Source: Candidatus Hodarchaeota archaeon
Lineage (GTDB): Archaea > Asgardarchaeota > Heimdallarchaeia > Hodarchaeales > Hodarchaeaceae
Length of the DNA: 21,600 nucleotides
Direction: 5' to 3'
Assembly: GCA_029856365.1 (NCBI GenBank)
Contig: JAHQWW010000063.1
Span: forward strand, 1-21,600
Shown: one piece after another, positions 4,310-21,266 of the stretch
Position numbering within the stretch: the first letter of the stretch is position 1
Layout: each line of letters opens with the position of its first letter
Notes under the pieces: model-generated
The model's database searches: none
What the model saw: the letters and a program-made list of their open reading frames with translations, nothing else
What the model was told of the DNA's origin: nothing
Position numbers and translations under genes: made by a program

Positions 4310-4519
4310 TGATCGGTACCGACCTGTTTGTATAATGAGAGTTACAGGATTGATTACAAGTTGGTTGTCTCCTATATTTATAAAGAATTTTCTTACATTA
4401 AACCCACTCAAACGAAATTCTTTTCCGTTGTAGAGGAGATTGATTTTAATAAAAATGTAGAATTAATTTTTTGGATTTGCCATTGATTTTCCATATTAGT
4501 CAAGTAAGAAGCTGGTTAA

Positions 4520-5506
4520 ATGAGTATTAAACTTATTACCATATCCGATCTCCACCAAGGCAATCCTATCTCTCTTCCTAGCAATATTAGAGTGATTCCT
4601 CAAGAAAAATTAATTCAAAATCTGATTCAGCGTAAACCAGACTGTATTCTAATTGCTGGTGATCTTCAAGACTATATGTGGAATTTAGGAACCGAAACAA
4701 ACCAAATTACTCAAATTAAAAAACAATTGAGGAATGATCCTGTTTTTAATGCATTAAATAAAGGATCTGTTCCAGTCTATTTCATTTGGGGTAATACAGA
4801 TGTTATGGATCTTGAAAAAGGGAATCTTTATGATGAAACACCCGTGACGGATGAGTTACGTGATTGGTTTTGTAATACATTCCAGAATTTACATAACTGT
4901 CATAATGAAATCTTAAACATTAAAGGTATTCCGATTTTGGGATATGCCGATGCGAACAAGACCACAGACGATCATAGTGGGAAATGTTGGGACGAACCTA
5001 CTATCTTAAGCGACTTTCAACATCTTATTGAGGGATTAGATCCAGAAATAAGACGAAACACCATTTTTCTTACCCATACTCCTCCACGTGGAGTACTCGA
5101 TTTTTCTAGTTTAGGAGGTCGCCACATTGGATCATATTATTTACGTGAGCTTATTGAAGAATTTCAGCCACTTCTTTCAATCTTTGGCCACGTCCATTAT
5201 TGTGGAGGATATTCAGAATTCATAAATAAGACACAATGTATCAATGTGTCTTCCTTTGGACTTGTAGTTTCACACGAGATACTTTTTGGACAGAGCGCCT
5301 TTGAGCTCCAAATTAATCCTGATAAAGAGGTCAGTTCCACGAAAATGATTGTTTCACATTACTGGGAAGGAAAACAAAAGAATGTGTTTGTTGAATATCG
5401 TCATTGCCAAATTTGTGGAAGACATACACCATTTGCCAGAAAACAGTTTAAAACTTGCCGTGTATGCCTAGGAGCACGAAGAATAGAGGAGCAATTACAG
5501 CAATAG
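4520..5506 (+). CDS. Calcineurin-like (Icc-related) metallophosphoesterase with C-terminal CxxC-CxxC zinc ribbon
   Basis: Motifs SDLH, AGDL, GNTD (variant of GNHD), THTPP and FGHVH. C-terminal CQIC..CRVC. Confidence 0.85.
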   Translation: MSIKLITISDLHQGNPISLPSNIRVIPQEKLIQNLIQRKPDCILIAGDLQDYMWNLGTETNQITQIKKQLRNDPVFNALNKGSVPVYFIWGNTDVMDLEKGNLYDETPVTDELRDWFCNTFQNLHNCHNEILNIKGIPILGYADANKTTDDHSGKCWDEPTILSDFQHLIEGLDPEIRRNTIFLTHTPPRGVLDFSSLGGRHIGSYYLRELIEEFQPLLSIFGHVHYCGGYSEFINKTQCINVSSFGLVVSHEILFGQSAFELQINPDKEVSSTKMIVSHYWEGKQKNVFVEYRHCQICGRHTPFARKQFKTCRVCLGARRIEEQLQQ

Positions 5507-5572
5507 CTTTAAATTATTCTAGTTTATTAAAATTAATAGAAAAGTAAGATAAGATGAACCTTGAATTTAATA

Positions 5573-6658
5573 TTATTCAAAAGAATATTCAGTCAAACCC
5601 AATTCCTTTTGCATTGTGAGGATATCTTGTTGGATTGATGGATTGATGGGAATGCCTGTTTGATACCGTTTTTTTTCCATTTCATATTCTTTTTCCCCTG
5701 CAGTGTATATTCTTGTTTGACCTGGTGCTTTCTTAGAGTTTCTCAGTCCTCTAACAATCTCACCTGCAATTTTTTTGAAAGTCGCCAAGGGAAGAAAACT
5801 CTCGATGTTAATTGCAAGGAAGAAATGACCCAATTTGTAACCTTTAGCTAATGTTAAGTCTTTCATGAATGGCCCACCTGTGAGCGCAGCAGCGAGTATT
5901 TCTACTGCAGTTCCATACCCATATCCCTTGTGCCCGCCTAGGATTTCGCCAGCGCCTCCTAATGGGAGTAATGCTGCAGTTCCTTCAATCAGCTCATTCA
6001 ATACTGCAATAGTGTCCGTAGATGTCTCTCCATTCTCTTTTATAACCCAACCTGATGGAGTGGGTGTTTCTGTCCGTGCTAAGACTTCAATCTTTCCTCG
6101 TTGAGTTATTGAAGTAGCACAATCAATAAGGAATGGGAAAGACTCATCAGTTGGACAACCGATTGTGAGAGGATTAGTACCAAGCATAGGTTCTACACCA
6201 AAAGTAGGAGCAATAGAAGGACGAGCATTGGTTAAAGTTAAACCGATCATTCCTTCGTTAATTGCCATTTGAGCATAATAACCTGCAATACCATAATGAG
6301 TCGAGTTCTTGACTGCAACCGCGCCTGTACCGTATTTTTGTGCTTTCTCTATTGCTAATCTCATTGCATGATAAGCAGCAACATGCCCCATTCCATGGCC
6401 TGCATCAACCAGTGCTGTCGTCTCTGATTCTTTAATAATTTTGAAATCGGTAGTTGCATTCTGTATTCCCCCTAAAACCCGATCATAATACATTTTTAAA
6501 CGTTGTACGCCATGAGATTCAATTCCACGAAGATCTGATTTAATTAGAATTTCGGAACATATTTTAGCGTCTTCTTCTGGAACTCCAATTCCAATGAAAA
6601 CATCTTGCATAAAATTATGCAAAGTTTTAACATCTATAAATATAATATCTTTAGTCAT
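5573..6658 (-). CDS. Ldh_2 family (type II malate/L-lactate/sulfolactate dehydrogenase-like) oxidoreductase
   Basis: Motifs SDLRGIESHG, HYGIAGYYA, GTNPL, GGHKGYG-like LGGHKGYGYG, GHFFLAIN and RIYTAGEKE. The start is probably ATG 6658; the ORF track uses GTG 6670. Confidence 0.9.
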   Translation of the reverse strand: MTKDIIFIDVKTLHNFMQDVFIGIGVPEEDAKICSEILIKSDLRGIESHGVQRLKMYYDRVLGGIQNATTDFKIIKESETTALVDAGHGMGHVAAYHAMRLAIEKAQKYGTGAVAVKNSTHYGIAGYYAQMAINEGMIGLTLTNARPSIAPTFGVEPMLGTNPLTIGCPTDESFPFLIDCATSITQRGKIEVLARTETPTPSGWVIKENGETSTDTIAVLNELIEGTAALLPLGGAGEILGGHKGYGYGTAVEILAAALTGGPFMKDLTLAKGYKLGHFFLAINIESFLPLATFKKIAGEIVRGLRNSKKAPGQTRIYTAGEKEYEMEKKRYQTGIPINPSIQQDILTMQKELGLTEYSFE

Positions 6659-6827
6659 TAGGTTACACACTCATTAAAATTGAAATATTAATGAAGAATT
6701 TGCAATACAATCAAAATTGTGGTTAAACTTCAATTTATTTATTTGTTTTTAACAGATTTTCCTTTTTATTTAGTGAATTCATTAAAAGATCTTTAAGAAT
6801 TAATACTGAAAACATAATTATTATAGA

Positions 6828-7361
6828 ATGGATTGGAATCACATGAATAACTTGGCTTTAATAGTCATGGATATGCAAGTAGGAAATTTTACTGGACCAG
6901 ACCCTATCTATAAGTGGAAGGAACTGCTCTCTAACATCCTTTCGTTGATAGCTCAAATGAGATCAATTAAGGCCCCTATTATATATATTCAAAATAATGG
7001 GGGAAAGGGGGATCCTGATGAGCCAGGTACTCCAGGATGGGATATTCATCCCTCCATTTCCCCTATTGAAGGGGACATAACAATTCAGAAATCAACACCT
7101 GACGCTTTCCATAAGACATCCCTTAAATCAGAACTAAAAAGGATGAAAATAGGTAAATTAATCATTGTTGGTCTCCAATCTGAGTACTGTATTGATACTA
7201 CTTGTCGGAGGGCATTTAATCTTGGTTATGAAGTAGTATTGGTTGAAGATGCACATAGTACATGGGATTCAGAACTTCTTAGCGCCCAAAAAATCATTGA
7301 CCATCATAACAATGTATTAGGTAGTTGGTTTGTCTCATTAAAAAGAACTAAAGAATTTTAA
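6828..7361 (+). CDS. Cysteine hydrolase, isochorismatase family
   Basis: Catalytic triad motifs IVMDMQ (Asp), IQKSTPDAF (Lys) and GLQSEYCIDTT (Cys), plus LVEDAHST. ATG 6843 is a possible alternative start. Confidence 0.9.
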   Translation: MDWNHMNNLALIVMDMQVGNFTGPDPIYKWKELLSNILSLIAQMRSIKAPIIYIQNNGGKGDPDEPGTPGWDIHPSISPIEGDITIQKSTPDAFHKTSLKSELKRMKIGKLIIVGLQSEYCIDTTCRRAFNLGYEVVLVEDAHSTWDSELLSAQKIIDHHNNVLGSWFVSLKRTKEF

Positions 7362-7419
7362 TGGGAGAAATAGCTTTAAAAAGCGATTAAAAGATTTTTT
7401 GGTTTCATTACTGAATAAT

Positions 7420-8862
7420 TTATTTTAAATGGTTATTTGCTATATTATCCAATTCTTTTCTGAGATTATCGTCAATAGGCTCCCTAACTGGACGTTCACT
7501 TAACTTGACCGCAATTTCTCTTGCTCTTTGTCGAGCTGATGTTTCCCCGCTTGTTTTCCATTGATCACGAGTCTCTCTGTTTATTATTTGGTAATTATCG
7601 ACGTTAAATGGTAAATAAAGCTCCTTTTTGAATAACTGTAAAGTTGTCGGATGAGACAAAAGTGAAACGCTGGGGTCATAATCTTTGAGAATATTTTGAG
7701 CAAATGGTTCATCATAACTAACAATACCTTGAATGAGGCGTTTAACCATTCCTGCAATCTCATTATCGATGATTAACTTCTCTAAACTCTGGGTTGATTC
7801 AAAATCTAACATCCCAGGTCCAGAAATCATATTAGTTCCAGCAAGTCCCGCTAATAACGCCCCCATACCTCCCTCGAACCCAGCCTGGGCATCTGGAACT
7901 TTAGAATCGGACAATGTCATATAAGCATGTGTTGGAAGTTTTAAAAATTTCCCCATTTGAACATCTGCAATATTGATCATCATTGTTTCAATGGCACCCA
8001 TAGGGGTTGTACCATTCTTCATATCAAAAACAGCTGGAGATCCCCCCCAGATTATAGGTGAATTCTTTTTAGCTAGTTGAGCAATAACAAGACCAGCTAA
8101 ACTTTCAGCAGTATGTTGAGTGACACAACCAACTAAAGTAATAGGAGCAGTTGAACCAGCAAGAGGCATACTTACGAATTCTGAAGGAATTCCACTTCTG
8201 GCCGCATCAATCACACTTTGTGTTGTAAGGTTTGACCACATAAGTGGAGGACTTGGACAGGCATCAAAGATTGCTAGTGGTTTTTCCACCAATTTATCAC
8301 TTGAAGTTCTGGTCAATTCTAACAGGTCACGCATTATTGCAAAACTTTCAGTTCGAAAGGTGCCTGTGATAATTGGTTTAGAACAATTAAGGAGAGCCAG
8401 ATATAAGCGATGCCAATCTTGGGCATCATTAGGAACATCTGTGTAAACGATAGCTGTTGAATGTGCCTCAAGATAAGGTAAATGGTCAACAATCCTTGAG
8501 AACTTAATATAATCTGAAGATAAAGCTTCTCTTATGACTCCAGAGTTTAAATCTTGGATAAAAATGGCAGCTGATCCAGGATCAAAATGGATGTTATCTT
8601 GCGTTAGCTGAATTACTTCCTTCCCTTCTCTATCAAATAATTTGATCTCTGAAGGAGCATAAACCCGTAATTTTTCAATTAAATCATCTGGAATAAAGTA
8701 TCTGGGACCCTCATTTTCAACTCCTTCTTCCTGTAATAGATCTCGTGCTTCAGAATTTTCTATCACCACTCCTTGGATCTGAAGGATGGTTTTAGCTTCA
8801 TGAAAAATTTTTTCTTTATATTCATTTGTTAATAATTCGATTTTTGGTCTCATTATAGTCAA
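7420..8862 (-). CDS. Trimethylamine methyltransferase (MttB) superfamily protein, non-pyrrolysine type
   Basis: Motifs PLAGSTAPITLVG, AESLAGLVIAQL, GAIET, SDSKVPDAQAG and GPGMLD..SLEKLIIDNEI. Leu (TTG, 7912-7914) occupies the pyrrolysine position. An AGGAGG SD at the end of the upstream gene precedes TTG 8862; ATG 8853 is an alternative start. Confidence 0.9.
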   Translation of the reverse strand: MTIMRPKIELLTNEYKEKIFHEAKTILQIQGVVIENSEARDLLQEEGVENEGPRYFIPDDLIEKLRVYAPSEIKLFDREGKEVIQLTQDNIHFDPGSAAIFIQDLNSGVIREALSSDYIKFSRIVDHLPYLEAHSTAIVYTDVPNDAQDWHRLYLALLNCSKPIITGTFRTESFAIMRDLLELTRTSSDKLVEKPLAIFDACPSPPLMWSNLTTQSVIDAARSGIPSEFVSMPLAGSTAPITLVGCVTQHTAESLAGLVIAQLAKKNSPIIWGGSPAVFDMKNGTTPMGAIETMMINIADVQMGKFLKLPTHAYMTLSDSKVPDAQAGFEGGMGALLAGLAGTNMISGPGMLDFESTQSLEKLIIDNEIAGMVKRLIQGIVSYDEPFAQNILKDYDPSVSLLSHPTTLQLFKKELYLPFNVDNYQIINRETRDQWKTSGETSARQRAREIAVKLSERPVREPIDDNLRKELDNIANNHLK

Positions 8863-8865
8863 TGA

Positions 8866-9753
8866 TTATCCTCCTGTGAGTCTATCGATGATATCACGAA
8901 GCAATTGTATATGGGTCGGTCCAGTACCACAACATCCTCCAACAATCTGGCCATCGTGTTCGAGAATTTGCTTTATGTCTTTAGCAAAGTCCTCAGGAGT
9001 TTGTTTGTAGACTGATTTACCATTTTCTAGTTGTGGATTTCCAGCGTTCGGTTTAATCGAAAGTGGGAACTTTGGTGCGGTAACCCTCATGACCCGTACT
9101 AGTTCGATGAAATCACTACTACTAAGAGTACAATTCGATCCAATGACAGCCACTCCTGAATCGATTAGTTCAGAAACACAATCTATTAATGAATTTCCCA
9201 TAACTGTAAAGTATCCTTTAGGAGTCTTTTTATAAGTCATGCTAGCGATTATTGGCTTATTTGATTCAATTTGGACAGCTAGTATTGCTGCTTTCATCTC
9301 TTGTATATCAGAGAAAGTCTCAATATGCCACGCGTCAATGAAGGGTGCAAGAGCACGCGCTTGCTTTTGAAAGCCCTTTTTCAGATCGTTAATAGATGCG
9401 TTACCGACTGGTGGTAGGAATTCTCCACTAGGCCCAATATCACCTATCACACATTTATTTGGAGGGCATATACTCCTTAATATTTTCCCAGAACTCTTGT
9501 TAATATCTTCAAGAAGGTTCTGGATGCCATACTTCTCAAGAGCAACACCATTTGCTCTGAAAGTGGCAGTTTGAACTAAATCACTCCCAGCTTTGTAATA
9601 TTGTTCAAAAATCTCCCTGATGACCTCAGGATGATCTATGTTCCATTTATCAGGAACTTCCCCAAGTTTTAATCCCCTACGCATTAGTTCAGTCCCCATT
9701 GCCCCATCAAATAATAAAATCTCCTTTTCCTTCAGGAGAGAGAGAAAATCCAT
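8866..9753 (-). CDS. Stand-alone homocysteine S-methyltransferase (Hcy/Zn-binding domain of MetH)
   Basis: Motifs LFDGAMGT, GDIGPSG, IETFSD and KPNAG. Zn ligands GSNC and GGCCGT. No pterin or B12 domain is attached. A GAGGT SD precedes the start. Confidence 0.92.
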   Translation of the reverse strand: MDFLSLLKEKEILLFDGAMGTELMRRGLKLGEVPDKWNIDHPEVIREIFEQYYKAGSDLVQTATFRANGVALEKYGIQNLLEDINKSSGKILRSICPPNKCVIGDIGPSGEFLPPVGNASINDLKKGFQKQARALAPFIDAWHIETFSDIQEMKAAILAVQIESNKPIIASMTYKKTPKGYFTVMGNSLIDCVSELIDSGVAVIGSNCTLSSSDFIELVRVMRVTAPKFPLSIKPNAGNPQLENGKSVYKQTPEDFAKDIKQILEHDGQIVGGCCGTGPTHIQLLRDIIDRLTGG

Positions 9754-9779
9754 AAAACCTCATCCATATCTTCGGCGAT

Positions 9780-10427
9780 TTAGGAAAGACCCAGAAGTTG
9801 CTTCGCTTTAGTTACTGCAGCAACAGCATTTTCCGCATAACCATCTGCTTTACATTCTTCCACCCATTTTGAAGTAACAGGGGCGCCACCGAGTATAACT
9901 TTAAATTTATCTCTTATTCCCTGTTGTTCAAGCAACTCTATAATTTTCTTTTGACCTATCATGGTTGTTGTTAACAGAGCGGATACTCCAATGAGATCAG
10001 CTCGATGTTTTACGGCTTCAGCGATGATATCTTCAGCTTTGACGTCAGCTCCCAAATCGATAACTTCAAATCCATTTGCCTTCAACATTGTAGCTACTAT
10101 AGTTTTCCCTATAGTATGGATGTCACCCTCGATGGTCGCCATCACAACTTTACCTTTTGTTTCTCTCGCTCTAGAACCTTCTTCAAGGTGAGGCGTTATA
10201 ATATCCACTGCCTCTTGCATTACTTGAGCTCCTCTCATGAGCTCTGGAAGAAAAAATTCACCTGCATCCCACAAGTTACCAACACGTTTAATCCCTTCAC
10301 CGAAACCTTTTTCGATTGCTTCGAGTAAGGGGAGTTGTTCATCTAAAGCTTTTTGAGCGAGGCTTTTTGCTTTCTCCATATCAAGTTCAACAACACTTGC
10401 TGCCATTTCTTCGTAGATTGAGTCCAT
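9780..10427 (-). CDS. Methyltransferase cognate corrinoid protein (MttC/MtbC-like)
   Basis: Cap domain with GEFFLPEL. B12-binding motifs DIHTIGK (DxHxxG), GVSALLTTTM and LGGAP. A GGTG SD precedes ATG 10427; the ORF track starts at 10439. Confidence 0.93.
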   Translation of the reverse strand: MDSIYEEMAASVVELDMEKAKSLAQKALDEQLPLLEAIEKGFGEGIKRVGNLWDAGEFFLPELMRGAQVMQEAVDIITPHLEEGSRARETKGKVVMATIEGDIHTIGKTIVATMLKANGFEVIDLGADVKAEDIIAEAVKHRADLIGVSALLTTTMIGQKKIIELLEQQGIRDKFKVILGGAPVTSKWVEECKADGYAENAVAAVTKAKQLLGLS

Positions 10428-10590
10428 AATAAGCACCATTAAACTTTGAGGACAGAAACATCATTGATTTTTAAATTTAGTATCAAAAGAATCGTTAATA
10501 TTGTTTATCTATTTAGGTTTTCAAAATTTTTCTTTGGAATAAAAAATGTGGAAAATAAGGTTTAACTAACAAAATCAAATGAAGATTTAT

Positions 10591-12003
10591 TTAATGTAAT
10601 CCTTTCTTGAATTCTTCCATTTGAATGACTCTATTAGTTATTCGTGCTTCTTCTGCCGCAAACGCCATCAAATGACTTTCTAGTGAAGCTTTAGCGCTAG
10701 TTAGGGGTTTTTCACGACCAAGGCGTAAAGAACCAATAAACGAGTTAATTAATCCAGGATCTCCACCGCCATGCCCGCTTCCAGTATCAAATTGCACTTT
10801 TTGGTCTGTAATGATCTCTTCGGTCTCTTTAAAATGATCATAGAGAATTAGCTTTTCTCCTGTAGAAAGAAACTCCCCGATTAGAGTTCCTTTTGTACCA
10901 TCAATGCGAATTGTGCGACCTTCTAAATGTGAATGCCCGTGCATTGTAAAAGTAGCAGTTGTGTTGTTCTCGAATTCAATAATAGTTACCTGATGATCTA
11001 CAACATTGTTATCAGCAAAGTAAACACATTCTCCATAAGGCCCTGTTCGTAAAGCTTCCCATTTTCCTTCTAAAGATAAATCTTCTGTAATGGTAGAGAC
11101 TGGCCATCCTTGGTATTCATAAACTTGTCGAAAGCGAGGAGCTTTCTTTAGTTTTGAAAAGACATGGGGATGCTTCAGAGCTATGCTAGCAATAAACTTA
11201 GGGAAACCTGAACCCCCAATTTGTACAATACGAAGTAGGGGAATAATGTCAATATATATCCGTGGGGCATAATATTTACAGGAGTTAGCTTCTGGACACC
11301 CATCTAAACATCGTTTTGTTGCCCCTTCAGGGGCTTTTTCTGGTTTAAAATGTGTCAAGCTACCAAATGAGCTTATAGATCGTGGTGGGTAACTTACAAG
11401 CCAATAAAGAATGTCTAAATCATGACATGATTTTGCAAGGATCATTGGACTCGAAATACTTTCTTTAGCCCAATTTCCTCTGACAAAAGAATGTGCCATA
11501 TGCCAGTAAGAAACGTTTTCTCGGAGATCAATTGTTATTATATCTCCTAATTGGCCTGATCGAATGATTTCATGGATTTTAGTAAAAAAAGGAGTATATC
11601 GTAAAACATGAGCGATTCTTAGTTGTTGTTCTGTCTCCTCGGCCTTTTTCACCAAGAGGATACATTCAGTAATAGTGGTGGCCATTGGTTTTTCTAATAA
11701 CACATGATAACCAAGCTTCAATGCCTGTAATGCAGGTTTAGTATGCATCTGGTCTTGCGTGCAGATAAAAGCTGCATCAGCCAGTTTGGAATCACTTAAT
11801 AAATCCTCCCAAGTCTTGAATTGGTATGAAGAAGAAATTCTATGGGCTTGGGCAAATTGTTTTCGTCGGATTGGGTGGGGTTCTGCAACTGCAACTATCT
11901 GGAGTTCTTCAGGATTGTTTAAAGCATATTGGCCGTAAACTGATGTACCACGATTCCCAGCACCAACTATCACAGCAGTTATACACTCTTTTGCATGCAA
12001 CAT
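10591..12003 (-). CDS. Gfo/Idh/MocA family NAD(P)-dependent oxidoreductase
   Basis: Motifs VGAGNRG, HVLLEKPM, HVLRYTPFF, KSCHDLD, DNNVVDHQV and GHGGGD. Start ATG 12003; the ORF track uses GTG 12009. Confidence 0.92.
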   Translation of the reverse strand: MLHAKECITAVIVGAGNRGTSVYGQYALNNPEELQIVAVAEPHPIRRKQFAQAHRISSSYQFKTWEDLLSDSKLADAAFICTQDQMHTKPALQALKLGYHVLLEKPMATTITECILLVKKAEETEQQLRIAHVLRYTPFFTKIHEIIRSGQLGDIITIDLRENVSYWHMAHSFVRGNWAKESISSPMILAKSCHDLDILYWLVSYPPRSISSFGSLTHFKPEKAPEGATKRCLDGCPEANSCKYYAPRIYIDIIPLLRIVQIGGSGFPKFIASIALKHPHVFSKLKKAPRFRQVYEYQGWPVSTITEDLSLEGKWEALRTGPYGECVYFADNNVVDHQVTIIEFENNTTATFTMHGHSHLEGRTIRIDGTKGTLIGEFLSTGEKLILYDHFKETEEIITDQKVQFDTGSGHGGGDPGLINSFIGSLRLGREKPLTSAKASLESHLMAFAAEEARITNRVIQMEEFKKGLH

Positions 12004-12118
12004 TTTCACAATCTTTTATATTAGAAAGTCCAAAACCTCCCCTTTCTTGGAACTTTATTTAGATTATTCTCAAGATTATAATTGTGATAAAGGCATGTGA
12101 TTAGAAATAGAATTAAAA

Positions 12119-13009
12119 TCAAGAAATTCTTCTTAAATAAGTTCTACCAACTATTAGGAGAATAAATCCGAAAAATATCACCAAGAAATTAAACCCAGGG
12201 GTATTGTTACTTAGAATTTTATCTAAATCAGTTCTTTCCAACTCTAGATCTAGAGCAAAATCAGCATTAAGAGATTGTTTGTAACTTCCTTTCATATAGG
12301 TAGTTATTTCATACGTGAGAAGTACTCCTGTGACTTTCTCCCAACGAAAACTTGCACTAAAGTCAAATTGAAGATCAATCTCCTCTTCTATGTTTTTCAT
12401 ATTCCCTTCATAATGGATCCACATATGATAATCTCGCTCATTATTAGAGTCATTTAATTCCAAAATTGTTTCCATTCCTTCTAATGCACCTGGAAGAGTA
12501 GATTGGTTCCATATTTGTAAAGGAGAAGATAACAACTTGTCCACTGGCACTAGAAAGACCCAATCACCGATAGTAATACCTGAATTGCTGAGTAAAAAAT
12601 CGTACCCTGTGCCTAGCACTCCACGACCCAATGATTCTTGAATTCCATATTCAAATAGCATTGCTGAGCTATTAGCTATCACAGAAGTATTATTCCAGTC
12701 GAGTTGATATGTAGTTATTTCCAAGTCTGTTGAATTTGCAGAAAGAACAGTCATAGTGATTGTTTCCTGTACAGGAACTACAGTATCCCCCAATCGATAA
12801 CCTTCTGTGGAAGATGTAATGTCAAATAATCCAGTAGAATATTTGAAATATCGAGAAGCTTTTTTCACGATGAAAGCCCAGGAATCGTTTGGCTTAACTC
12901 CAAATGAATGATTGGAGGCACTAGAGCAAATGAATACCGTACTTAGTAATATCAAGAAAAAGAGAATGCTAGAGACAAACCAAGAAAAATGTTTAGATTT
13001 CAATCTCAC
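12119..13009 (-). CDS. Secreted, membrane-anchored cell-surface (glyco)protein with C-terminal TPGF-TM-basic sorting signal
   Basis: N-terminal signal peptide (KSKHFSWFVSSILFFLILLSTVFICSSA), beta-rich body and nine N-x-S/T sequons. The C-terminus NNTPGFNFLVIFFGFILLIVGRTYLRRIS resembles PGF-CTERM-type anchors. The start is GTG 13009, or TTG 13003 after AAGGTGA. Confidence 0.75.
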   Translation of the reverse strand: MRLKSKHFSWFVSSILFFLILLSTVFICSSASNHSFGVKPNDSWAFIVKKASRYFKYSTGLFDITSSTEGYRLGDTVVPVQETITMTVLSANSTDLEITTYQLDWNNTSVIANSSAMLFEYGIQESLGRGVLGTGYDFLLSNSGITIGDWVFLVPVDKLLSSPLQIWNQSTLPGALEGMETILELNDSNNERDYHMWIHYEGNMKNIEEEIDLQFDFSASFRWEKVTGVLLTYEITTYMKGSYKQSLNADFALDLELERTDLDKILSNNTPGFNFLVIFFGFILLIVGRTYLRRIS

Positions 13010-13243
13010 CTTAATCAAGATACATCCTGATTGACATAACTTATATAATTTTAGAAGAAGGAAGTAGTTTTTAATTCCATGAATCAATTTATGTTTTTTC
13101 TGATTGCAGAAGACAAAAAATTCAATATAATTAGAGTAAATGATGATCAATACTATTTATTATTATTAATTGTCATTGTTTGCCCCGAATACTATGATTT
13201 AAAGACAAAACATTTAAATTTCATAGAATTTGTTTTTTTAATA

Positions 13244-13699
13244 CTAAGAAGCAGGTTCTATTTTGATTTCATAATTAATCGCTGGTTTTATATGTTTTCC
13301 AATAATACAATACTTTGGGATAAGATCACACACTCTTTGTAGAAGAAATACATCACCGCTAATATTGATCATACACTTAATTGTAGAAATTTCATAATCG
13401 TTTTTTAATCTATTAAACTGAATTTCAGCTGACGTGGTAACACTGAGGGTTTCAGGTTCGGTATGGAGGCTATCACATAATTGAAGTATTGTACTCAACG
13501 TACAAGTAGCTACAGCAGCTAGAAACAAATCCTCAGGTGAGGGGTGATCAGTTCCTCCAAAAACTGGAGGACAACTAAAAGGAAGAGGCTTTCTCCATCC
13601 TGTTGTGACAAAATATCCTTTTCTCTTCTCCTCCCAAGTAGCTACGGTCTTTATGTCAAAATTCTTAGCTTCAGGTTTAATCATGGTTAATATTTCCAT
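13244..13699 (-). CDS. OsmC/Ohr family protein
   Basis: PPVFGG..SPEDLFLAAVATC with a second Cys in KYCII, matching the two-Cys OsmC pattern. Confidence 0.85.
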   Translation of the reverse strand: MEILTMIKPEAKNFDIKTVATWEEKRKGYFVTTGWRKPLPFSCPPVFGGTDHPSPEDLFLAAVATCTLSTILQLCDSLHTEPETLSVTTSAEIQFNRLKNDYEISTIKCMINISGDVFLLQRVCDLIPKYCIIGKHIKPAINYEIKIEPAS

Positions 13700-13827
13700 A
13701 TAACTGTTAATTAAGAGCTTTTAGGTTTAATGACACTTTTATATTAGGATTTGTGATTTTAGAACGTTTTGCTTATTGGGAATCTAGAGATTAATTATAT
13801 GATAAAGAATTTGTGGAATGAGTTGCA

Positions 13828-14184
13828 ATGAAGAAAATGCCTATTAATTCAATCATAAACGAAGATTGTCTGATATTCATTCCTAAATGCATACCTGATG
13901 AATCCATTGATATTATTATCACAGATCCTCCGTATGGTATATCATCTGGCAACAAGCTTTCAATGAAAAATGTCAAGAAACAAAAAGGTTTTGGTGGGGA
14001 TTGGAACATAATTGACGAAGACTGGGATACATTTTCATTTCAAGATTATTCTATCTTAATTAAGAAAATGTTAAAGGAAAGCCACAGAGTTTTAAAACCA
14101 ACAGGAACGATGTTCGTATGTGGAACCTACCGTAATATTGGAATAATTAACGGTAGTTTTACTTACTTATTTATATACTATTGA
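13828..14184 (+). pseudogene. 3'-truncated beta-class amino (N6-A/N4-C) DNA methyltransferase
   Basis: Motifs IINEDC, DESIDIIITDPPY (motif IV), DEDWDTFS and HRVLKPTG. Recognisable similarity stops near 14151, and the FxGxG SAM-binding motif I is absent. Only 118 aa. Confidence 0.8.
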
Positions 14185-14370
14185 TTTTTTTATGCTTCAT
14201 TTTGTCTAATTTGTCGTTTATGGATGATTAGATGAAGTTAAGTTGGTTCTTTTTTTAATTAATTCGATAAATATTTGAATATAGCGCAAGTCATCAATCG
14301 TTGGATTCTATACATATCAGATTTCATATAGATGAGAAGTCTTTTTCATCAAAGAAAGACCTGAGTGTAA

Positions 14371-15027
14371 TTAAAGAACATTATTGTTAAAGATAGACTG
14401 CAGAATTTGGTAAACCCTTAACAATAAATCTGTTGGAAAAAATTCAATCCGTCCGTGCACTAAATCGTTCCGTATTAGACGAAACCTGTTGATCGCCATC
14501 ACTTCGAGCAGTTCAATGAGGTTCTGTTTAGCTGCCATTTCAACGATATTTTTTACACTTGCTCGTTCCGAAGCCCCGACTTTTGATCGCAGTTCACAGT
14601 TGAAGCGCTTATACACATAGTTAACCAATGAAATGCGTTCATGAATTGTAATATGTTGATTCTGTTCTAGAGCAGCGATGAGTTCTGGATACGACCTTTC
14701 ATAGATAGAGGGAGTTTCTTGTAGGGGTTCCATGTTAGGGGATTGGGCTCGTTTAGCATGCCTTTTTCGTGCCTCCTTAATTGCTGCAGTTAGATCCGAG
14801 TAGTACGGGTACAGAGAGGGAAATTCATATGATGCCCCTTGATAATGAAAGGCAAAAGCATAAACATCAGCTTCTTCCCACTCGATTACACCCTCGTGGG
14901 AGATTTCTATTATGTCAAACATGAAAATTTCGTCTTGTTGGTGAATGATGAGATAATTCTCAGTGACTGCGTATTCATCTCCTTGGATGGTTTTATCACT
15001 AGCGATAATTGTATCATTGGAGGACAT
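14371..15027 (-). CDS. Putative HEPN-domain RNase with N-terminal PH-like beta domain
   Basis: The all-helical C-terminal half carries RNDLVH (RxxxxH, 14455-14472). The N-terminal ~90 aa is a run of short beta-strand-like segments capped by one helix (SDLTAAIKEARKRH). It starts 20 bp after the Type IIG stop codon. Confidence 0.6.
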   Translation of the reverse strand: MSSNDTIIASDKTIQGDEYAVTENYLIIHQQDEIFMFDIIEISHEGVIEWEEADVYAFAFHYQGASYEFPSLYPYYSDLTAAIKEARKRHAKRAQSPNMEPLQETPSIYERSYPELIAALEQNQHITIHERISLVNYVYKRFNCELRSKVGASERASVKNIVEMAAKQNLIELLEVMAINRFRLIRNDLVHGRIEFFPTDLLLRVYQILQSIFNNNVL

Positions 15028-15047
15028 AGAAACATCATACCTAGTAT

Positions 15048-18000
15048 TTAACCTTTCTTTGATAGGCTATTTTCTACTACCCGCTTATGTGTCTCATCCA
15101 AATCAAAACTCTTCCGAGCTATTTCCTCGGATAATTCTGTTAGAAAAGTGATCAGAGAATCTATCTTGGTGATTCTCTCCAATTTTTCAGAATAAACCTC
15201 AATTATATCTCGATATTCGGACAGTGTGATTGAGTATACACGTTCTAGTCTCCGTCTAAAGGTTGGCCACTCTTCGTGACCTATTTTCTCCAATAGTTGG
15301 TAATTTATATCCTGTTTTTCATCTGAAGACGCTTTTACACTTGGGTAATTTGAGGATACAAACTGAAAGAAGTCGTATTGCAGCTGCTTAATCTCTTTAT
15401 GTAAGTTAATAATTTCTTCAACGATACACGCTAAGGCATCATGATTTCCTTGGGTAGGATTTTCATAATTTTCAGAAATTAAGTCTTCAATATGTAATAG
15501 ATTTAAATCGGGTTTGTTGATCTCAATGGAACTTTCCAAGATGTCTGATATCATCGTGGTTAGCTTTTCTTGAAATCGTTCTGTTGTATTTGACGATTCA
15601 GTAAAATGGACTTTAGGGATTGGTATTAAGGAGGAATAGGCGTAATCCATTACTCGCGATGTTTCAGTTGTTTTACTGAATAGAACATTCGCTAGATAAA
15701 AAGATGGGTAAGGACTGTTAATGATCCCACATAAATAGAACAAGGAATATGTACATCCCTCAGGGGGAAGAACGTTCACGAGCTTTTCGGTAGTACATAA
15801 TTCACCACGGGAATCGACATAACTTACGAGACGATTCCCCCGTAAAACTTTGATAAAAACTCTTTTTGTGGTTGTCCTCATAGTACGATCCAAATACCGT
15901 TGATAATTAGGATCGGAAAGGTCAATATCATAATAGCGAGTGATCCAATACCTTTGGACGTGAGGAATTTTGTTTATCCAGACAAAATGGTTGTCTGGGA
16001 GATCAACCAAATTTGGCTCAAGATAAAATGACTCACTTAATGTTTTCCGTTTGATTTTGTCAGGTATATATGGCCCTCGAAAGATCCGTTCGGAAGATTC
16101 GACTAGCTCCCCTAAACTGATAGAGTTTTGTGTGATTCGGTTAACTACCTCAATCTCTCCCTCTGATAAGCCTCTAAATATAATAATCCCATTCTGATTA
16201 AAGAAGTCATAGGGAACATCATTCTCAGCAATAATGGTCTTTTGAGGTAATGGTGTTCGTAACGGGAGTGCAACAGAAATGCTTACCGCGTTCTGTAAAT
16301 GCTTTTTCCGTTTTAATGATCCAATTAGAATTATTGTTTCATAATTGACATCTTCAAACGCCAACCCTGTATCCATTACATGCATCAGATCTGCCTTACG
16401 AAATAAAGCAAAACGAGTGTCAGCCCACAGGGAATAGAAAGAGAGTGTTTTTGGTAAAATAATTCCAAAATGTTTGCATAAAGAAAGCATTTTGACAGTA
16501 AAGTAAGCTGCTGTGTCCTTATGAGTTTTATAAAGCTTCTTGAAATATTTTTTATGAATAGTGGATATCTCTCCTCCATATGGTGGGTTGGTTAAAATAA
16601 AATCAAACCTACGGGCTTTTTCTGACGGGTTCAACAGTGAATCTATGAATTCTAAATCTGTATGAAAATAGTGTTCTGTGTTCGCTTCTTTAACAACCTC
16701 TTGAACGAATTCATCAGAAAGATCAATGGTTTTTGTAGTGTTATAGTTTCTAATGATGTTCGAGACGTAATTTCTTCGATCTTGGTCTTCTCTAGAGGTG
16801 TGAATTTTTGTCCACAAATGTAGATGACATATGATTTTTAGATCATGTATAGCTTCTTGAATAAGATCATACGTGGTTTGACTCTCGCGGACATTTCGAG
16901 AGCTAATATCAGCTTGTTGAAGTAGTGATTCGATATGCTGATTCAACGAAAATTTTGGAGAGATATAGATGTCTAATGTTTGTTTGTATGTGTCCTGTAA
17001 TTCTCTCCATCGAATTCCTAATAACGTATTCCCTACACGAATATGGTGATCTAAAAAACTTAGTGGAAATTCTGATGTGAACGAGGTAAGCCATAACGAA
17101 ACTTGGGCTAGTTCAACGGCGAGAGGGTTAATATCAACACCATACAGACATCTCCTAAGAATTAACCGTTCAATAAAAATGAGTGGATCAACATTCGGAT
17201 TGTTTGTTGATAAAGGTGAAAATTGATACAATTTCCCATCCAGTTGATAGTGCTCCCCTAAGATCGATTCTGTCCATTCTCTTAAGAATTCGAATGCGTA
17301 TACTAAGAAATGACCACTCCCTACTGCTGGATCTAAAATTCGTAGTCGTAACATCCTCGCCAAAGGATCATATTGGCGAAGTTGGGCTATTTTCTCTTTT
17401 CGTGTTCTGTTCTCTTGTATGTCTACCCCTGTTAACATTTCTTCGAAAGTGGTTTTGAACTGTACAAGTGCTAGCCCCAAGGTCTCCTCAGTGATAAATC
17501 GTACGATATAATCAGGTGTAAAATATGATCCAGTAGCCTTTCGTTCGTTATTGTCTCCGACTAAATATAGCTCCCCTGCTGGGATGGTCTTAAGGACTTC
17601 ATCTGTATTCCGAAGATCTGTTATTGGCACAATTATTTCTGAATCGTTTCTTTTGATAATCTTCAATTCTTCCTGCGCGAGTTGAAGCTGGAATCGTAGC
17701 AATGATTCGTAGATACTCCCAAGATGTCTCACCGATAACTCTGCATAGTTAATCCAGATCGGAGCTCCGTTATTCGTTGATCTGCGGTCTCGTGATAGTC
17801 GATCAATTACTTCAGACATTATGTAATCAGGGATCGTAATCGTCTGGAAAGTTGGATAATGTTCATCATCAAATAACCGTCCATTATAGGCAGGCACTTG
17901 TAATTGTGAGTCTCCACTAGTCATAATCTGAAAGACAGCCCTTAGAGCCTCGTATATTCGTGTTTGTCTAGAGCTGAAAGTTCGTCCCTCATCCATTCGG

Positions 18001-19052
18001 TTGGCGATGTCTAACCGTAAATTCAACAAAGAATAGTCAGAATATGGGCCAAACCGAGGTAAAATGTTTCGATCTTCGGCAAACATGACAATGAGTAGAC
18101 GATAAAGCAGCAATATTGACGTTTGATAGACGGAATTAATGGTGTCCTCATCTAATGAATCATAGGAGTGTTTCATACCATTTGCCAATAAGGGGATGAT
18201 TTCTTCATATAATTCGTCTTTTAACGCGTCCGTGACTTTTCTTTCCCATAATTTTCCCTCTGCCAGAGCAATATCAAGAACACATTTGTTCTCTAACCCA
18301 ATAATGTATTGGTGGGATTGTGGTGACAGAAAAAAGATGATTAGTTTCAACAAATGAAGTAGAGTTATCCCCTCGTGAGGAAAATACTCATCAAGAGTCG
18401 TTTGGGTTGGTAGTAACCAGGTTGCCAGTTTTTCAAACTTAAATGAGAGGTATTTCTTTGAACGAAGGTCCGTCTCGCGAGCATATACCCGCCATTCTCG
18501 CCCATTTGTTAGAAATGCAAATCGAACACGCCTGTTGGTCTCTCGCCATACGGTCTCCAAGTAGCTAATAATTTTGTTTGAGGGATTATTTGGGTCTTCT
18601 GAATCATCAGGATTACGAGCATCTAAATTCCTATTGCCTGCTTTAGCTTCTAAAAGACAATCTGCTTTCTCCCATTTATCACTCCCAGAAAGACGGAGGC
18701 TAGCTCGCCAGTCTTCTTGGTTGGAATAAAGAGAATAATCTGGAACATACCGTGAGGCCCGAGTCTGACGCGAGTAATAGAAATGGAAAAAATCTAGAAT
18801 CTTATTGATAATCAAGTCCTCTATTTCCGTTTCTGATAAGGAGACGAGATCAGGGAGAGATTTGAAAGTCTCAACTAAATGAGCTAAAAAAGCTTGGACA
18901 GTCTCACTCTCAATAGCTTCCCAATACTTTAGTTCTTGAATTCCATGAGTCAAGAAATATTCACTAAATAGGCTCCCACTGACGAACTGAGATAACTCAA
19001 CTGTGTTGTCCAAACTTCTCCTCAAAGACTTGCTGTTCCCCATGAAAATCAA
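15048..19052 (-). CDS. Type IIG (Eco57I/TaqI-like) fused restriction endonuclease / N6-adenine methyltransferase
   Basis: PD-(D/E)xK nuclease (VPDY..LEAK, LTNGREWRVY). Gamma-class MTase motifs RKATGSYFTP, LDPAVGSGHF, YGVDIN and FILTNPPY. TaqI_C-like target-recognition region (FYLCGIINS). The start is TTG 19052 or ATG 19043. Confidence 0.92.
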   Translation of the reverse strand: MIFMGNSKSLRRSLDNTVELSQFVSGSLFSEYFLTHGIQELKYWEAIESETVQAFLAHLVETFKSLPDLVSLSETEIEDLIINKILDFFHFYYSRQTRASRYVPDYSLYSNQEDWRASLRLSGSDKWEKADCLLEAKAGNRNLDARNPDDSEDPNNPSNKIISYLETVWRETNRRVRFAFLTNGREWRVYARETDLRSKKYLSFKFEKLATWLLPTQTTLDEYFPHEGITLLHLLKLIIFFLSPQSHQYIIGLENKCVLDIALAEGKLWERKVTDALKDELYEEIIPLLANGMKHSYDSLDEDTINSVYQTSILLLYRLLIVMFAEDRNILPRFGPYSDYSLLNLRLDIANRMDEGRTFSSRQTRIYEALRAVFQIMTSGDSQLQVPAYNGRLFDDEHYPTFQTITIPDYIMSEVIDRLSRDRRSTNNGAPIWINYAELSVRHLGSIYESLLRFQLQLAQEELKIIKRNDSEIIVPITDLRNTDEVLKTIPAGELYLVGDNNERKATGSYFTPDYIVRFITEETLGLALVQFKTTFEEMLTGVDIQENRTRKEKIAQLRQYDPLARMLRLRILDPAVGSGHFLVYAFEFLREWTESILGEHYQLDGKLYQFSPLSTNNPNVDPLIFIERLILRRCLYGVDINPLAVELAQVSLWLTSFTSEFPLSFLDHHIRVGNTLLGIRWRELQDTYKQTLDIYISPKFSLNQHIESLLQQADISSRNVRESQTTYDLIQEAIHDLKIICHLHLWTKIHTSREDQDRRNYVSNIIRNYNTTKTIDLSDEFVQEVVKEANTEHYFHTDLEFIDSLLNPSEKARRFDFILTNPPYGGEISTIHKKYFKKLYKTHKDTAAYFTVKMLSLCKHFGIILPKTLSFYSLWADTRFALFRKADLMHVMDTGLAFEDVNYETIILIGSLKRKKHLQNAVSISVALPLRTPLPQKTIIAENDVPYDFFNQNGIIIFRGLSEGEIEVVNRITQNSISLGELVESSERIFRGPYIPDKIKRKTLSESFYLEPNLVDLPDNHFVWINKIPHVQRYWITRYYDIDLSDPNYQRYLDRTMRTTTKRVFIKVLRGNRLVSYVDSRGELCTTEKLVNVLPPEGCTYSLFYLCGIINSPYPSFYLANVLFSKTTETSRVMDYAYSSLIPIPKVHFTESSNTTERFQEKLTTMISDILESSIEINKPDLNLLHIEDLISENYENPTQGNHDALACIVEEIINLHKEIKQLQYDFFQFVSSNYPSVKASSDEKQDINYQLLEKIGHEEWPTFRRRLERVYSITLSEYRDIIEVYSEKLERITKIDSLITFLTELSEEIARKSFDLDETHKRVVENSLSKKG

Positions 19053-19104
19053 TACACCACGTGTGTTACTAGATATTGATTTAATGAATTTAAAAGACCA
19101 TAGT

Positions 19105-19565
19105 TTATAAAAGTCTTTGTCCTCTTTTATTCAATTTACGAAACCATGTTGAATATTGTTTTCTTGTAAATTTTTTGTTTCTCGTCTTTATGGGAGGATC
19201 TCTTGAAGGATCGACCTCTACAACTTTCATTAATAACACCTCATCCTCATATTCAGTCCCTTTCTTGGAATAATTTACTAAATACAAGATGGCGTTAAAA
19301 TCTTGGGCCATCCTCCACAACGAAAGCCATTTCCCAGAATTTTTGCGAAAATAATGATTGGGATGACTAGAGTATGGAGTAATTCCTCTTTTAAACTGCC
19401 TTTCTTTACATCGCAGTAGTTCAAGTATAATATAGCGATTTTTTTATTATCCCATTGAATTCGGTCGAAATTGATCGCGTTGGTTTCATCTCCAGCGAGC
19501 ATTTCCTTATCGAATATAAATCCACTAATATCTGGTCTACCTAAAGGTTTACTACCATGTTTCAT
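19105..19565 (-). pseudogene. Single ~153-aa gene split by a 1-nt frameshift in an A7 tract; possible small PD-(D/E)xK-like nuclease
   Basis: Adding one A at 19439-19445 joins the two ORF-track fragments into one open frame: MKHGSK...NFDRIQWDNKKNRYIILELLRCKERQFKRGITPYSSHPNHYFRKNSGKWLSLWRMAQDFNAILYLVNYSKK...GQRLL. A GAGGT SD precedes ATG 19565. Confidence 0.7.
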
Positions 19566-19745
19566 AGTTTAACCTCTACAACGAGGATTGCAAATTAAAT
19601 CTTCTTGCATGATTCCTATCATTAACCATAACAAAATCAGATTTTCTTAATAATTTCATCATGATAATTCTGGTGCTGTAATAAATCTGCTAACCCACTT
19701 TTGAAAAATCATATCTTATACTATAATCAGCTTTTAAGGATTGAA

Positions 19746-19865
19746 TTAAATTTTCATTTTTGCTGCTCCAATAACAGAGATTTGGTTCGCACTAACAGGA
19801 ATTAAATTGATAAAGAAAAATATCACGCAAATACTTAATAACAAAGTTATTTTTCTTAATTTCAA
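19746..19865 (-). CDS. Unannotated 39-aa micro-ORF: signal peptide plus 13-aa tail (secreted peptide or remnant of a secreted-protein gene)
   Basis: A very strong SD AAAGGAGGTGA (19870-19880) precedes TTG 19865. Translation MKLRKITLLLSICVIFFFINLIPVSA-NQISVIGAAKMKI has n, h and c signal-peptide regions with a VSA cleavage motif. Confidence 0.55.
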   Translation of the reverse strand: MKLRKITLLLSICVIFFFINLIPVSANQISVIGAAKMKI

Positions 19866-19920
19866 ATTATCACCTCCTTTTTTAGTATTTTAATTTCTCT
19901 TTCTCCCTTTTTTTTTGAAC

Positions 19921-20475
19921 TTAATTTTCAAAAGAATTTCCCTTGGCAAGGATCAGGGAAAGGAACACCTCGTCGATGTTCAATTTTGTTTTTGCGGAAC
20001 ATAAGAAGTATCCAATCTTTAGAAAGTGTTTGGCTATCACATCTTTGTGGAGATGATCGATTAATGAGTCAATTTTGTCCTTTTGAACAAGAGTTAAGTG
20101 TTCTTTTAAATCAGCTTTATTTCCAATGATCTGTAAGACCACTGGTTTAGTGCAGTGTACAATAATCTCCTTAATCCAAACTACAATGTTCTGAAATGTT
20201 TTTTCTCGAGTCAAATCAAACACTACAATTATTCCATCGGCATCTTGAATATAGCGTTTTCGAACGTGTTTAACCGAAGGATGACCTGAGATATCCCATA
20301 GCTGTAATTGAATGGTGTCTCCCTTAATTTCAACCTCTTTGAGAGTGAAATCAACCCCCATAGTCATCATATAATGGGAATGGAAGGGAATACCAAAGAA
20401 ACTTTGTTTGATGGAGGTTTTCCCCACTCCTTGGTCTCCTAATATGCAAATTTTATACGATCGCAGACCCCTCAT
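19921..20475 (-). CDS. Rab-like small GTPase (Ras superfamily)
   Basis: G1 GDQGVGKT, G2/RabF1 TMGVDF, G3 LQLWDISGH, RabF5 VVFDLT, G4 NKAD and G5 CSAK. No C-terminal cysteines. The start is ATG 20475 or TTG 20487. Confidence 0.92.
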   Translation of the reverse strand: MRGLRSYKICILGDQGVGKTSIKQSFFGIPFHSHYMMTMGVDFTLKEVEIKGDTIQLQLWDISGHPSVKHVRKRYIQDADGIIVVFDLTREKTFQNIVVWIKEIIVHCTKPVVLQIIGNKADLKEHLTLVQKDKIDSLIDHLHKDVIAKHFLKIGYFLCSAKTKLNIDEVFLSLILAKGNSFEN

Positions 20476-21266
20476 TCCTCTAATCAACCCTCTTGTACTG
20501 AAAGAAAGAAATTCTCATTTCTTAATACTATCTCTAACGAATTTTATGTTTAATAAGCCAGTTTCATCAAGAATTGGAGATTTTATAAAGAGGGAACAAT
20601 CAGAAAATAGCAATTTTTGGGAGAAAATTTGTAAAGAAGCTCACATCCTGAAAAATCATAACTAAAATTGACTTGGCTGAACTCTCAGGTATCTCTCCTT
20701 AATAAGGTGAGAAACAATTATAGCTGCATTTTATTGGTACACTATAAATCTCTTTAATAAATAATCAGTTGTTGTTTTTCTTTTTCATCTGCTCTTTCAT
20801 AATGATCTTTTCTTCAGTTTTTTCCATATTAAAAATAAACCGCTGTTAAAGGCAGGCCATTTCACATTTTTACATATATGAAAATCGTTTAATGATAATA
20901 TGACCGATTAAAGAGGTTAGTGATAAAGCATACTATTTTGGCACTTTTTAGTAAAAATTTTTGAAAAATTATTCTTTTCTAATCCTTCCTTTTCGAAACT
21001 TATGGATAGCTTTTTGTCACCAACTACGAAACGAAGACATCTAATTAATAATTGAATTTACACATTGAAAAAGTTCTGATAGCATTAATGTTTGGGTCCA
21101 ATAACACCAGGTAATATTGAGCACAATAAATAACGGTCTCCAGGATTTTGGGCTAGTAATTGGAACAAAAAATGGGGCACTTCAAAAATTAGCGTTTCCA
21201 AAAATGGAAACATTCATTTTTATGGCAAAAAAATGAGGAAAAAAAAGAAGAGGAGGAAGCATAAAA

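Follow-up and report, generated by a model that had tools for sequence, protein, structure and literature searches.

What would a small protein that joins a PH-like fold to a HEPN ribonuclease (RNase) fold be doing directly behind a restriction-modification (R-M) gene in an Asgard archaeon? The question arises from a stretch of 21,600 nucleotides (nt) of contig JAHQWW010000063.1 of a Candidatus Hodarchaeota archaeon, here called the window; the source assembly (G000) comprises 4.24 Mb in 204 contigs and is 83.6% complete. On the minus strand of the window lie the gene of P0001, a 218-amino-acid (aa) protein with a predicted PH-like and a predicted HEPN domain, and the gene of P0002, a Type IIG R-M enzyme. 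Our leading answer, which we hold tentatively and at a little short of even probability, is that P0001 is a latent, sensor-gated HEPN endoribonuclease that was acquired with the Type IIG gene, the two forming a two-layer defence islet.

The gene pair and its predicted domains

The TAA stop codon of the P0002 gene and the ATG start codon of the P0001 gene are separated by exactly 20 nt, with both genes on the minus strand; the first-pass annotation had placed the smaller gene 20 base pairs (bp) behind the Type IIG stop on the same strand, and translation of the open reading frames (ORFs) confirmed it. Because of this short spacer and the shared strand, the two genes are most likely co-transcribed. 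No terminator-like site was detected between them on the minus strand, in a scan whose consensus is bacterial whereas the host is archaeal. The features of the pair are as follows.

15048..19052, minus strand: gene of P0002, Type IIG (MmeI/Eco57I-like) R-M enzyme, 1334 aa
15028..15047, minus strand: 20-nt spacer between the P0002 and P0001 genes, with AGGT 12-15 nt upstream of the P0001 ATG
14371..15027 (including the stop codon), minus strand: gene of P0001, predicted PH-like and HEPN protein, 218 aa, ATG start, from the ORF listing and translation
14746..15027, minus strand: predicted N-terminal PH-like domain, residues 1-94, seven strands and a capping helix (70-94)
14698..14745, minus strand: Pro-containing linker, residues 95-110, modelled at low confidence (predicted local distance difference test score, pLDDT, below 50 at 96-109) and differing among the three orthologs
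14374..14697, minus strand: predicted DUF4145-like HEPN domain, residues 111-218
14455..14472, minus strand: RNDLVH, R186-H191, putative HEPN catalytic motif

P0001 has few relatives. An exhaustive phmmer search of 1.84 billion representatives returned nine proteins, and a word-indexed search returned three. Only P0003 (210 aa, 55% identity) and the truncated P0004 are related to P0001 over its full length; the remaining relatives (P0005-P0011, together with a 346-aa protein of G002 and a 480-aa protein of G007) share only residues about 105-215, which correspond to the helical C-terminal half.

For this C-terminal half, the AlphaFold2 (AF2) model placed residues 113-214 in five helices at a pLDDT of about 90, forming the all-helical up-and-down bundle that characterizes the HEPN superfamily. 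When the domain was compared with the PDB by Foldseek, the best matches were almost all HEPN proteins (weak E-values, from 0.036; probability up to 0.99), and the closest solved folds were the HEPN-MNT toxins 5yep, 7ae2 and 8xdj. A bare RxxxxH motif is frequent by chance. The RNDLVH of P0001 stands above chance because it is kept in the relatives and aligns onto the motif of DUF4145: in a 12-sequence alignment N187 is invariant, R186 is nearly invariant and H191 is present in 10/11 complete domains (Q in P0009), and the motif has the form known for HEPN proteins, Rx4-6H with usually N, H or D following the R. An hhalign comparison of the 11-sequence alignment of the C-terminal domain with 16 DUF4145 domains of the same archaeal class gave a probability of 92.5% (E = 4.8e-7, 73 columns) and laid the RNxxxH of the P0001 family on the R..N..H motif of DUF4145.

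Single-sequence searches with P0001 were silent, with no Pfam match even at E up to 10 and nothing significant in PADLOC (E up to 1), NCBIfam or PHROGs. The DUF4145 profile itself (PF13643) had no match in the genome of the window at E 0.01 or better, P0001 falling below its gathering cut-off of 23.1 bits; the same profile scored the 480-aa relative of G007 at 23.2 bits, and weak matches to DUF4145 and to HepT-like profiles were obtained in 6/12 and 3/12 family members, respectively. A search of the PDB with the family profile matched only RpoE, within the winged helix-turn-helix (wHTH) part of the long relatives. From the profile comparison and the structural model we conclude that the C-terminal domain of P0001 is a divergent DUF4145-like HEPN domain with its catalytic motif intact, and P0001 is a putative RNase.

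The N-terminal half was modelled with AF2 from the three full-length sequences (P0001, P0003 and P0004). This model contains seven strands (residues 7-68), a helix (70-94) and a disordered linker (96-109), which in P0001 includes the sequence QSPNMEPLQETP, and the pLDDT of the N-terminal domain is mostly 65-89. As modelled, residues 1-94 display the hallmarks of a PH-like fold, namely seven antiparallel strands in two sheets closed by a C-terminal capping helix. The top PDB matches found by Foldseek were all PH domains (Rtt106, GRK2 and the bacterial PH proteins 3b77, 3dcx and 3hsa), the ESM Atlas model matched the bPH_3 and bPH_2 clusters (template modelling score 0.60-0.76), and the best match in a viral library was a 'Bacterial PH domain protein'. 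The PH-like assignment of residues 1-94 is therefore supported at the fold level: the predicted seven-strand sandwich and C-terminal helix are shared with the bacterial PH (bPH_2, bPH_3/YokE-like) and the eukaryotic PH, PTB and FERM-F3 domains, whereas the Pfam PH families gave no sequence-level match to this region, and no sequence relative of the domain was found outside the three orthologs. A second AF2 model, computed from the 12-sequence alignment and showing a helical N-terminal half at low confidence, was rejected as an artefact of the misaligned, coiled-coil long relatives.

We take P0002 to be an intact Type IIG enzyme in a single chain, because Pfam and PADLOC profiles for this class match it and both nuclease and methyltransferase motifs are in place. 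Its Pfam matches are Eco57I (8.7e-19), MmeI_Mtase (8.3e-12) and N6_Mtase (2.7e-8), accompanied by weak matches to MmeI_N, MmeI_hel and TaqI_C (the last at 0.0019, below the cut-off), and the PADLOC Type IIG profile (REase_MTase_IIG) matches residues 19-525 at 2e-41 and residues 272-701 at 1.2e-44. The protein carries the motifs PD104, E135-A-K137 (ExK), DPAVGSG at 574 and NPPY at 822, and its domains run from a PD-(D/E)xK nuclease region at the N-terminus through a helical spacer and a gamma-class N6-adenine methyltransferase to a TaqI_C-like target-recognition region at the C-terminus; MmeI/Eco57I-type enzymes have this domain order and these motifs. All three elements that define a Type IIG enzyme (PD-(D/E)xK nuclease, gamma-class N6-adenine methyltransferase and C-terminal target-recognition domain) can thus be recognized, the match to the last being weak. 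A sequence search of the PDB yielded no solved structure for P0002. Its methyltransferase core scored highest in PADLOC with DrmMI of DISARM and was matched by BREX PglX profiles as well, NCBIfam PglX reaching 107 bits against a cut-off of 500 bits; P0002 was rejected as a DISARM or BREX component because the 21.6-kb window contains no partner genes (drmA/B/C or pglZ/brxC/brxL), the remaining genes being metabolic or unrelated, plus one Ras-family GTPase.

The first-pass annotation had described P0001 much as it now appears, as a beta-rich, PH-like N-terminal domain ending in one helix, a Pro-containing linker and a helical HEPN domain with RNDLVH. The secondary structure and fold searches of both halves agree with this description, the RxxxxH proved to be kept in homologs as anticipated, and the large neighbour was correctly named a Type IIG enzyme. 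The annotation also held that P0001 lacks an ABC ATPase, in line with the Pfam, PADLOC and NCBIfam scans, in which no ATPase family was found.

A strain-specific segment at a rearranged locus

Both genes lie within a 5.8-kb segment that none of the other 21 species genomes in the genus contains. Full-length P0001 occurs in G000 only, among 41 relatives and 399 phylum genomes, and scans of genome, metagenome and viral contig collections revealed no further P0001 loci. The Type IIG enzyme is itself patchily distributed: at an E-value threshold of 1e-20 it was found in 15/399 phylum genomes, the nearest being 40% identical. The segment and its borders comprise the following features.

14151..19942: strain-specific 5.8-kb segment at a synteny breakpoint, carrying only the P0001 and P0002 genes and a broken gene of the 151-aa type
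13828..14184, plus strand: 5' part of a truncated resident N6_N4 DNA methyltransferase gene, covering PF01555 positions 1-61 only and convergent with the P0001 gene
19105..19565, minus strand: broken gene, lying upstream of the Type IIG gene as overlapping ORFs of 95 and 71 aa
19921-20487, minus strand: Ras-family small GTPase gene bordering the segment (Pfam Ras, 2.9e-38)

To the left of the segment, window positions 4517-14150 are collinear with contig C49 of G007, the closest genome, and to its right positions 19943-20630 are collinear with a different G007 contig, C37, both at about 84% nt identity. The 890 bp between the Type IIG and Ras genes (19053-19942) had no real match in the 21 genus genomes. 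At the left border the resident methylase gene is cut: its intact ortholog in G007 encodes 271 aa (4.3e-42), and in G000 the 3' end lies on a separate contig (C178:1945-2061), with the middle third missing. This 3' piece adjoins the ortholog of the gene that follows the methylase in G007, and is preceded by unrelated DNA that encodes a subtilisin-like fragment as well as a 173-aa ORF. For this reason we rejected the idea that the 5.8-kb segment had simply inserted into the methylase gene, and the position of the 3' end on C178 next to unrelated DNA indicates a larger rearrangement of the locus relative to the closest genome, with no clean insertion. Comparison of the segment borders gave only short repeats at chance level, neither a target-site duplication nor terminal inverted repeats being clearly recognizable, and no tRNA gene was found in the 21.6-kb window.

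The GC content at third codon positions (GC3) is 0.384 in the P0001 gene and 0.350 in the P0002 gene, as compared with 0.26-0.32 in the genes of the left flank; the Ras gene has a likewise raised value (0.381). The shared, genus-unique segment, the cut methylase gene and the raised GC3 together support a joint acquisition of P0001 and P0002, as seen in one genome.

Readings of the gene pair

In the reading that we favour, the pair would protect the cell at two levels. The Type IIG enzyme would cut unmodified invading DNA, and the HEPN protein would cleave RNA and stop growth if the infection proceeds. Within P0001, the PH-like domain would serve as the trigger-binding or autoinhibitory part and the DUF4145-like HEPN domain as the effector, probably dimeric like other HEPN RNases, whose endoribonuclease activity is metal-independent; a single strain-specific segment of 5.8 kb would have brought the P0001 and Type IIG genes into the genome. 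As for the trigger, we consider it likelier that the PH-like domain senses an invader component directly than that it senses the state of the R-M enzyme, because the pairing is not a trait of the enzyme's relatives (seven others lack it) and because characterized small proteins such as RAZR, in which an N-terminal domain is joined to HEPN, are activated directly by phage proteins; by analogy with RAZR, HepS and AbiJ-type proteins, in which an N-terminal domain is joined to HEPN, invader sensing appears the more likely role of this domain.

The theme to which such a protein would belong is an established one. At least 16 HEPN clades show links to R-M systems, these links being mainly bacterial; DUF4145 (PF13643) is entered as 'in operon with R-M' and occurs in fusions with many N-terminal domains, and abortive-infection (Abi) architectures composed of an N-terminal domain and HEPN have been described in the same survey (Anantharaman et al. 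2013, PMC3710099). P0001 shares with the R-M-linked HEPN genes the R(N)xxxH HEPN domain, the operon-like unit with an R-M enzyme and the similarity to the DUF4145 profile. It differs from them in falling below every Pfam threshold itself, in its PH-like partner domain, which the catalogue does not list (neither PH nor pleckstrin occurs in its text), and in its Asgard host and single-chain Type IIG partner, both of which are unusual for this theme. A close parallel to the proposed sensor and effector is RAZR (PD-T7-4), an abortive-infection RNase composed of a zinc finger and a DUF4145-HEPN domain and activated by ring-shaped phage proteins (PMC13017515); RAZR has a Cys4 zinc ribbon and is a stand-alone gene, whereas P0001 is PH-like with no Cys4 cluster and no PADLOC match, and follows an R-M gene. 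With PrrC and RloC, P0001 shares a predicted C-terminal HEPN RNase domain, R-M linkage and a proposed back-up role when restriction fails. Those proteins carry an N-terminal ABC-type ATPase, in place of which residues 1-94 of P0001 form a predicted PH-like beta sandwich; PrrC and RloC belong to Type I hsd operons, whereas no hsdR, hsdM or hsdS is present in the window, and P0001 is much smaller (218 aa), with no sequence similarity detected between them. Compared with HepT of HEPN-MNT systems (5yep, 7ae2, 8xdj and 1wwp), it is without an MNT partner gene, has the PH-like domain in addition, and shows only 8-16% identity.

No PH-like/HEPN fusion was found in the searched literature. What is new is this domain combination, while HEPN RNases accompanying R-M systems, and DUF4145 RNases joined to a sensor, are known. 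The first-pass annotation had recognized no named defence system in the architecture, which holds to the extent that no PADLOC, Pfam or NCBIfam model covers it, the suggested PADLOC run having returned no defence model for P0001, and must be narrowed in that the R-M-linked HEPN theme and RAZR had already been described.

Several observations weigh against our proposal. The P0001 family has three full-length members, and the linkage to R-M could be read in one genomic context. Downstream of the genes of seven other Type IIG relatives (in G001, G016, G081, G391, G068, G129 and G022) there was no P0001-like or DUF4145-like gene. No PADLOC model matches P0001, and the PH-like model rests on three sequences, with a pLDDT below 50 at residues 46-56. 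In addition, the wider HEPN family consists of Asgard proteins of about 480 aa, which bear RNxxxH in a DUF4145-like HEPN domain at the C-terminus, in addition to a coiled-coil region and a wHTH-like segment, and its genes occupy conserved, housekeeping-like synteny among species of two other genera in 12/14 sampled loci. The loci of this family are listed below.

L083-L094 (e.g., L086:7931-9400, minus strand), L023:9102-10544 and L024:647-1687: genes of the 480-aa HEPN family
L023 = G007:C63:51000-70000: defence-island-like cluster around the 480-aa HEPN protein of G007

In one genus the gene order reads choline-transporter-like protein, HhH protein, MobB, a 360-aa unknown protein, the 480-aa HEPN protein and a GDPD phosphodiesterase, and in the other genus the HEPN gene neighbours glycerate kinase and a TPR protein. 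These 480-aa proteins look vertically inherited rather than defensive, and since the nearest relatives of P0001 sit in such conserved synteny, its HEPN domain may derive from a non-defence family. Only the G007 copy lies in a defence-island-like cluster, which contains a superfamily 1 (SF1) helicase (AAA_11/AAA_12), a PLD-like nuclease, an AAA_22 ATPase and a PD-(D/E)xK-HerA fusion. The association of homologs with R-M or defence loci, by which the first-pass annotation was prepared to be judged, is in part contradicted by the housekeeping-like majority of the wider family.

The reading put forward in that annotation was a guard module, in which the PH-like domain senses a viral anti-restriction protein or the state of the R-M enzyme and releases the RNase to bring about abortive infection. 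Spelled out as a mechanism resembling PrrC, the HEPN RNase would be silenced as long as the PH-like domain is bound to the Type IIG enzyme, and would be set free once a viral anti-restriction protein, or overload, disables that enzyme. The tight same-strand linkage of the two genes and their joint acquisition speak for this mechanism, and a release of the HEPN RNase upon neutralization of restriction, following PrrC-like logic, has been proposed for R-M-linked HEPN genes in general, where HEPN associates with nuclease or helicase subunits and not with methylases (PMC3710099); the Type IIG enzyme has its nuclease in the same polypeptide. The pairing, however, is not conserved, the seven other Type IIG relatives lacking such a gene, and P0001 has no ATPase or other PrrC feature. 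Of 13 short relatives of the C-terminal part of the enzyme, identified among only 8000 candidates scored, none came from a contig of P0003's size. The guard mechanism is not supported beyond a single adjacency, and we consider it unlikely. A more specific form, according to which the state of the Type IIG enzyme is read by the PH-like domain docked onto it, making P0001 a minimal, ATPase-free analogue of PrrC in a Hodarchaeales-type Asgard archaeon, appears to us more doubtful still.

We judge with comparable scepticism, and as somewhat less probable than the guard mechanism, the possibility that P0001 has no part in defence, being instead a lineage-specific RNA-processing or regulatory HEPN protein drawn from the Asgard 480-aa wHTH-HEPN family and brought next to the R-M gene by an accident of rearrangement. 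The conserved synteny of its nearest HEPN relatives with choline-transporter-like, HhH, MobB and GDPD genes, or with glycerate kinase, in two genera is consistent with such an origin, and certain HEPN domains are non-catalytic binding domains (PMC3710099). Yet the catalytic RN...H motif of P0001 is intact, an unrelated gene would hardly be expected to lie 20 nt away in the same orientation, and GC3 is raised as in the R-M gene. The full-length protein, moreover, is missing from the genomes of the other species of the genus and from the rest of the 399 phylum genomes, a patchy distribution that is typical of accessory or defence genes. Least probable of all, in our estimate, is an addiction or stabilization toxin that penalizes loss of the cassette and aids the persistence of a mobile R-M segment rather than antiviral defence, for although HEPN proteins are the toxins of HEPN-MNT pairs, with 5yep, 7ae2 and 8xdj as the closest solved folds, and although the cassette is strain-specific and located at a rearrangement breakpoint, the segment contains no MNT or other antitoxin-like gene (its other ORFs are only pieces of the broken 151-aa-type gene) and R-M systems by themselves are already addiction modules.

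Apart from R-M, CRISPR, viperins and argonautes, the defence systems of Asgard archaea have received little study (PMC12988326, PMC11291487). If P0001 has RNase activity and its PH-like domain gates this activity, the protein would add a new pairing of sensor and effector to the HEPN abortive-infection repertoire; should the PH-like domain instead dock on the Type IIG enzyme, the pair would represent an R-M guard built from a PH-like fold, which eukaryotes use widely for signalling. The generality of either is limited: with three known family members and one known genomic context, no general conclusions can yet be drawn, and the weight of the finding is restricted by the tiny size of the family and by a link read from one locus. 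The cassette itself, two genes in about 4.7 kb, could offer a route to a concrete function for a prokaryotic PH-like domain.

Neighbouring genes and other DUF4145 genes

The two ORFs upstream of the Type IIG gene are the N-terminal (95 aa) and C-terminal (71 aa) pieces of one gene, both being spanned by its intact homologs P0026-P0031 (151-156 aa). These intact relatives belong to no Pfam family, and a 'nuclease-like' label for the broken gene at 19105-19565 was rejected on that ground. The Ras-family gene at the right border is one of many, a first look giving 21-73 candidate paralogs per genome in the genus, as is typical of Asgard archaea. For the family of the truncated methylase, PF01555 (N6_N4 DNA methylase), we counted 40 matches in the 4.2-Mb genome of G000, several of them with internal stops, which points to a very large and partly decayed load of methylase and R-M genes.

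Elsewhere in the class, DUF4145 genes that score above the Pfam cut-off adjoin TnpB-like, Mrr-like and HNH genes; together with the cluster around the G007 copy, these defence-like or mobile surroundings of related genes speak in favour of the defence reading of P0001. In two class genomes, small DUF4145 HEPN genes (L053:1355-2575 and L054:2246-3262) lie beside TnpB-like genes (OrfB_IS605/Cas12f1-like TNB). DUF4145 HEPN domains were also observed at the C-terminus of Roc/Ras-type GTPases, in fusion proteins of about 900 aa encoded in three genomes of the same genus (L061:1-1818 in G018, L060 in G019 and L066 in G005).

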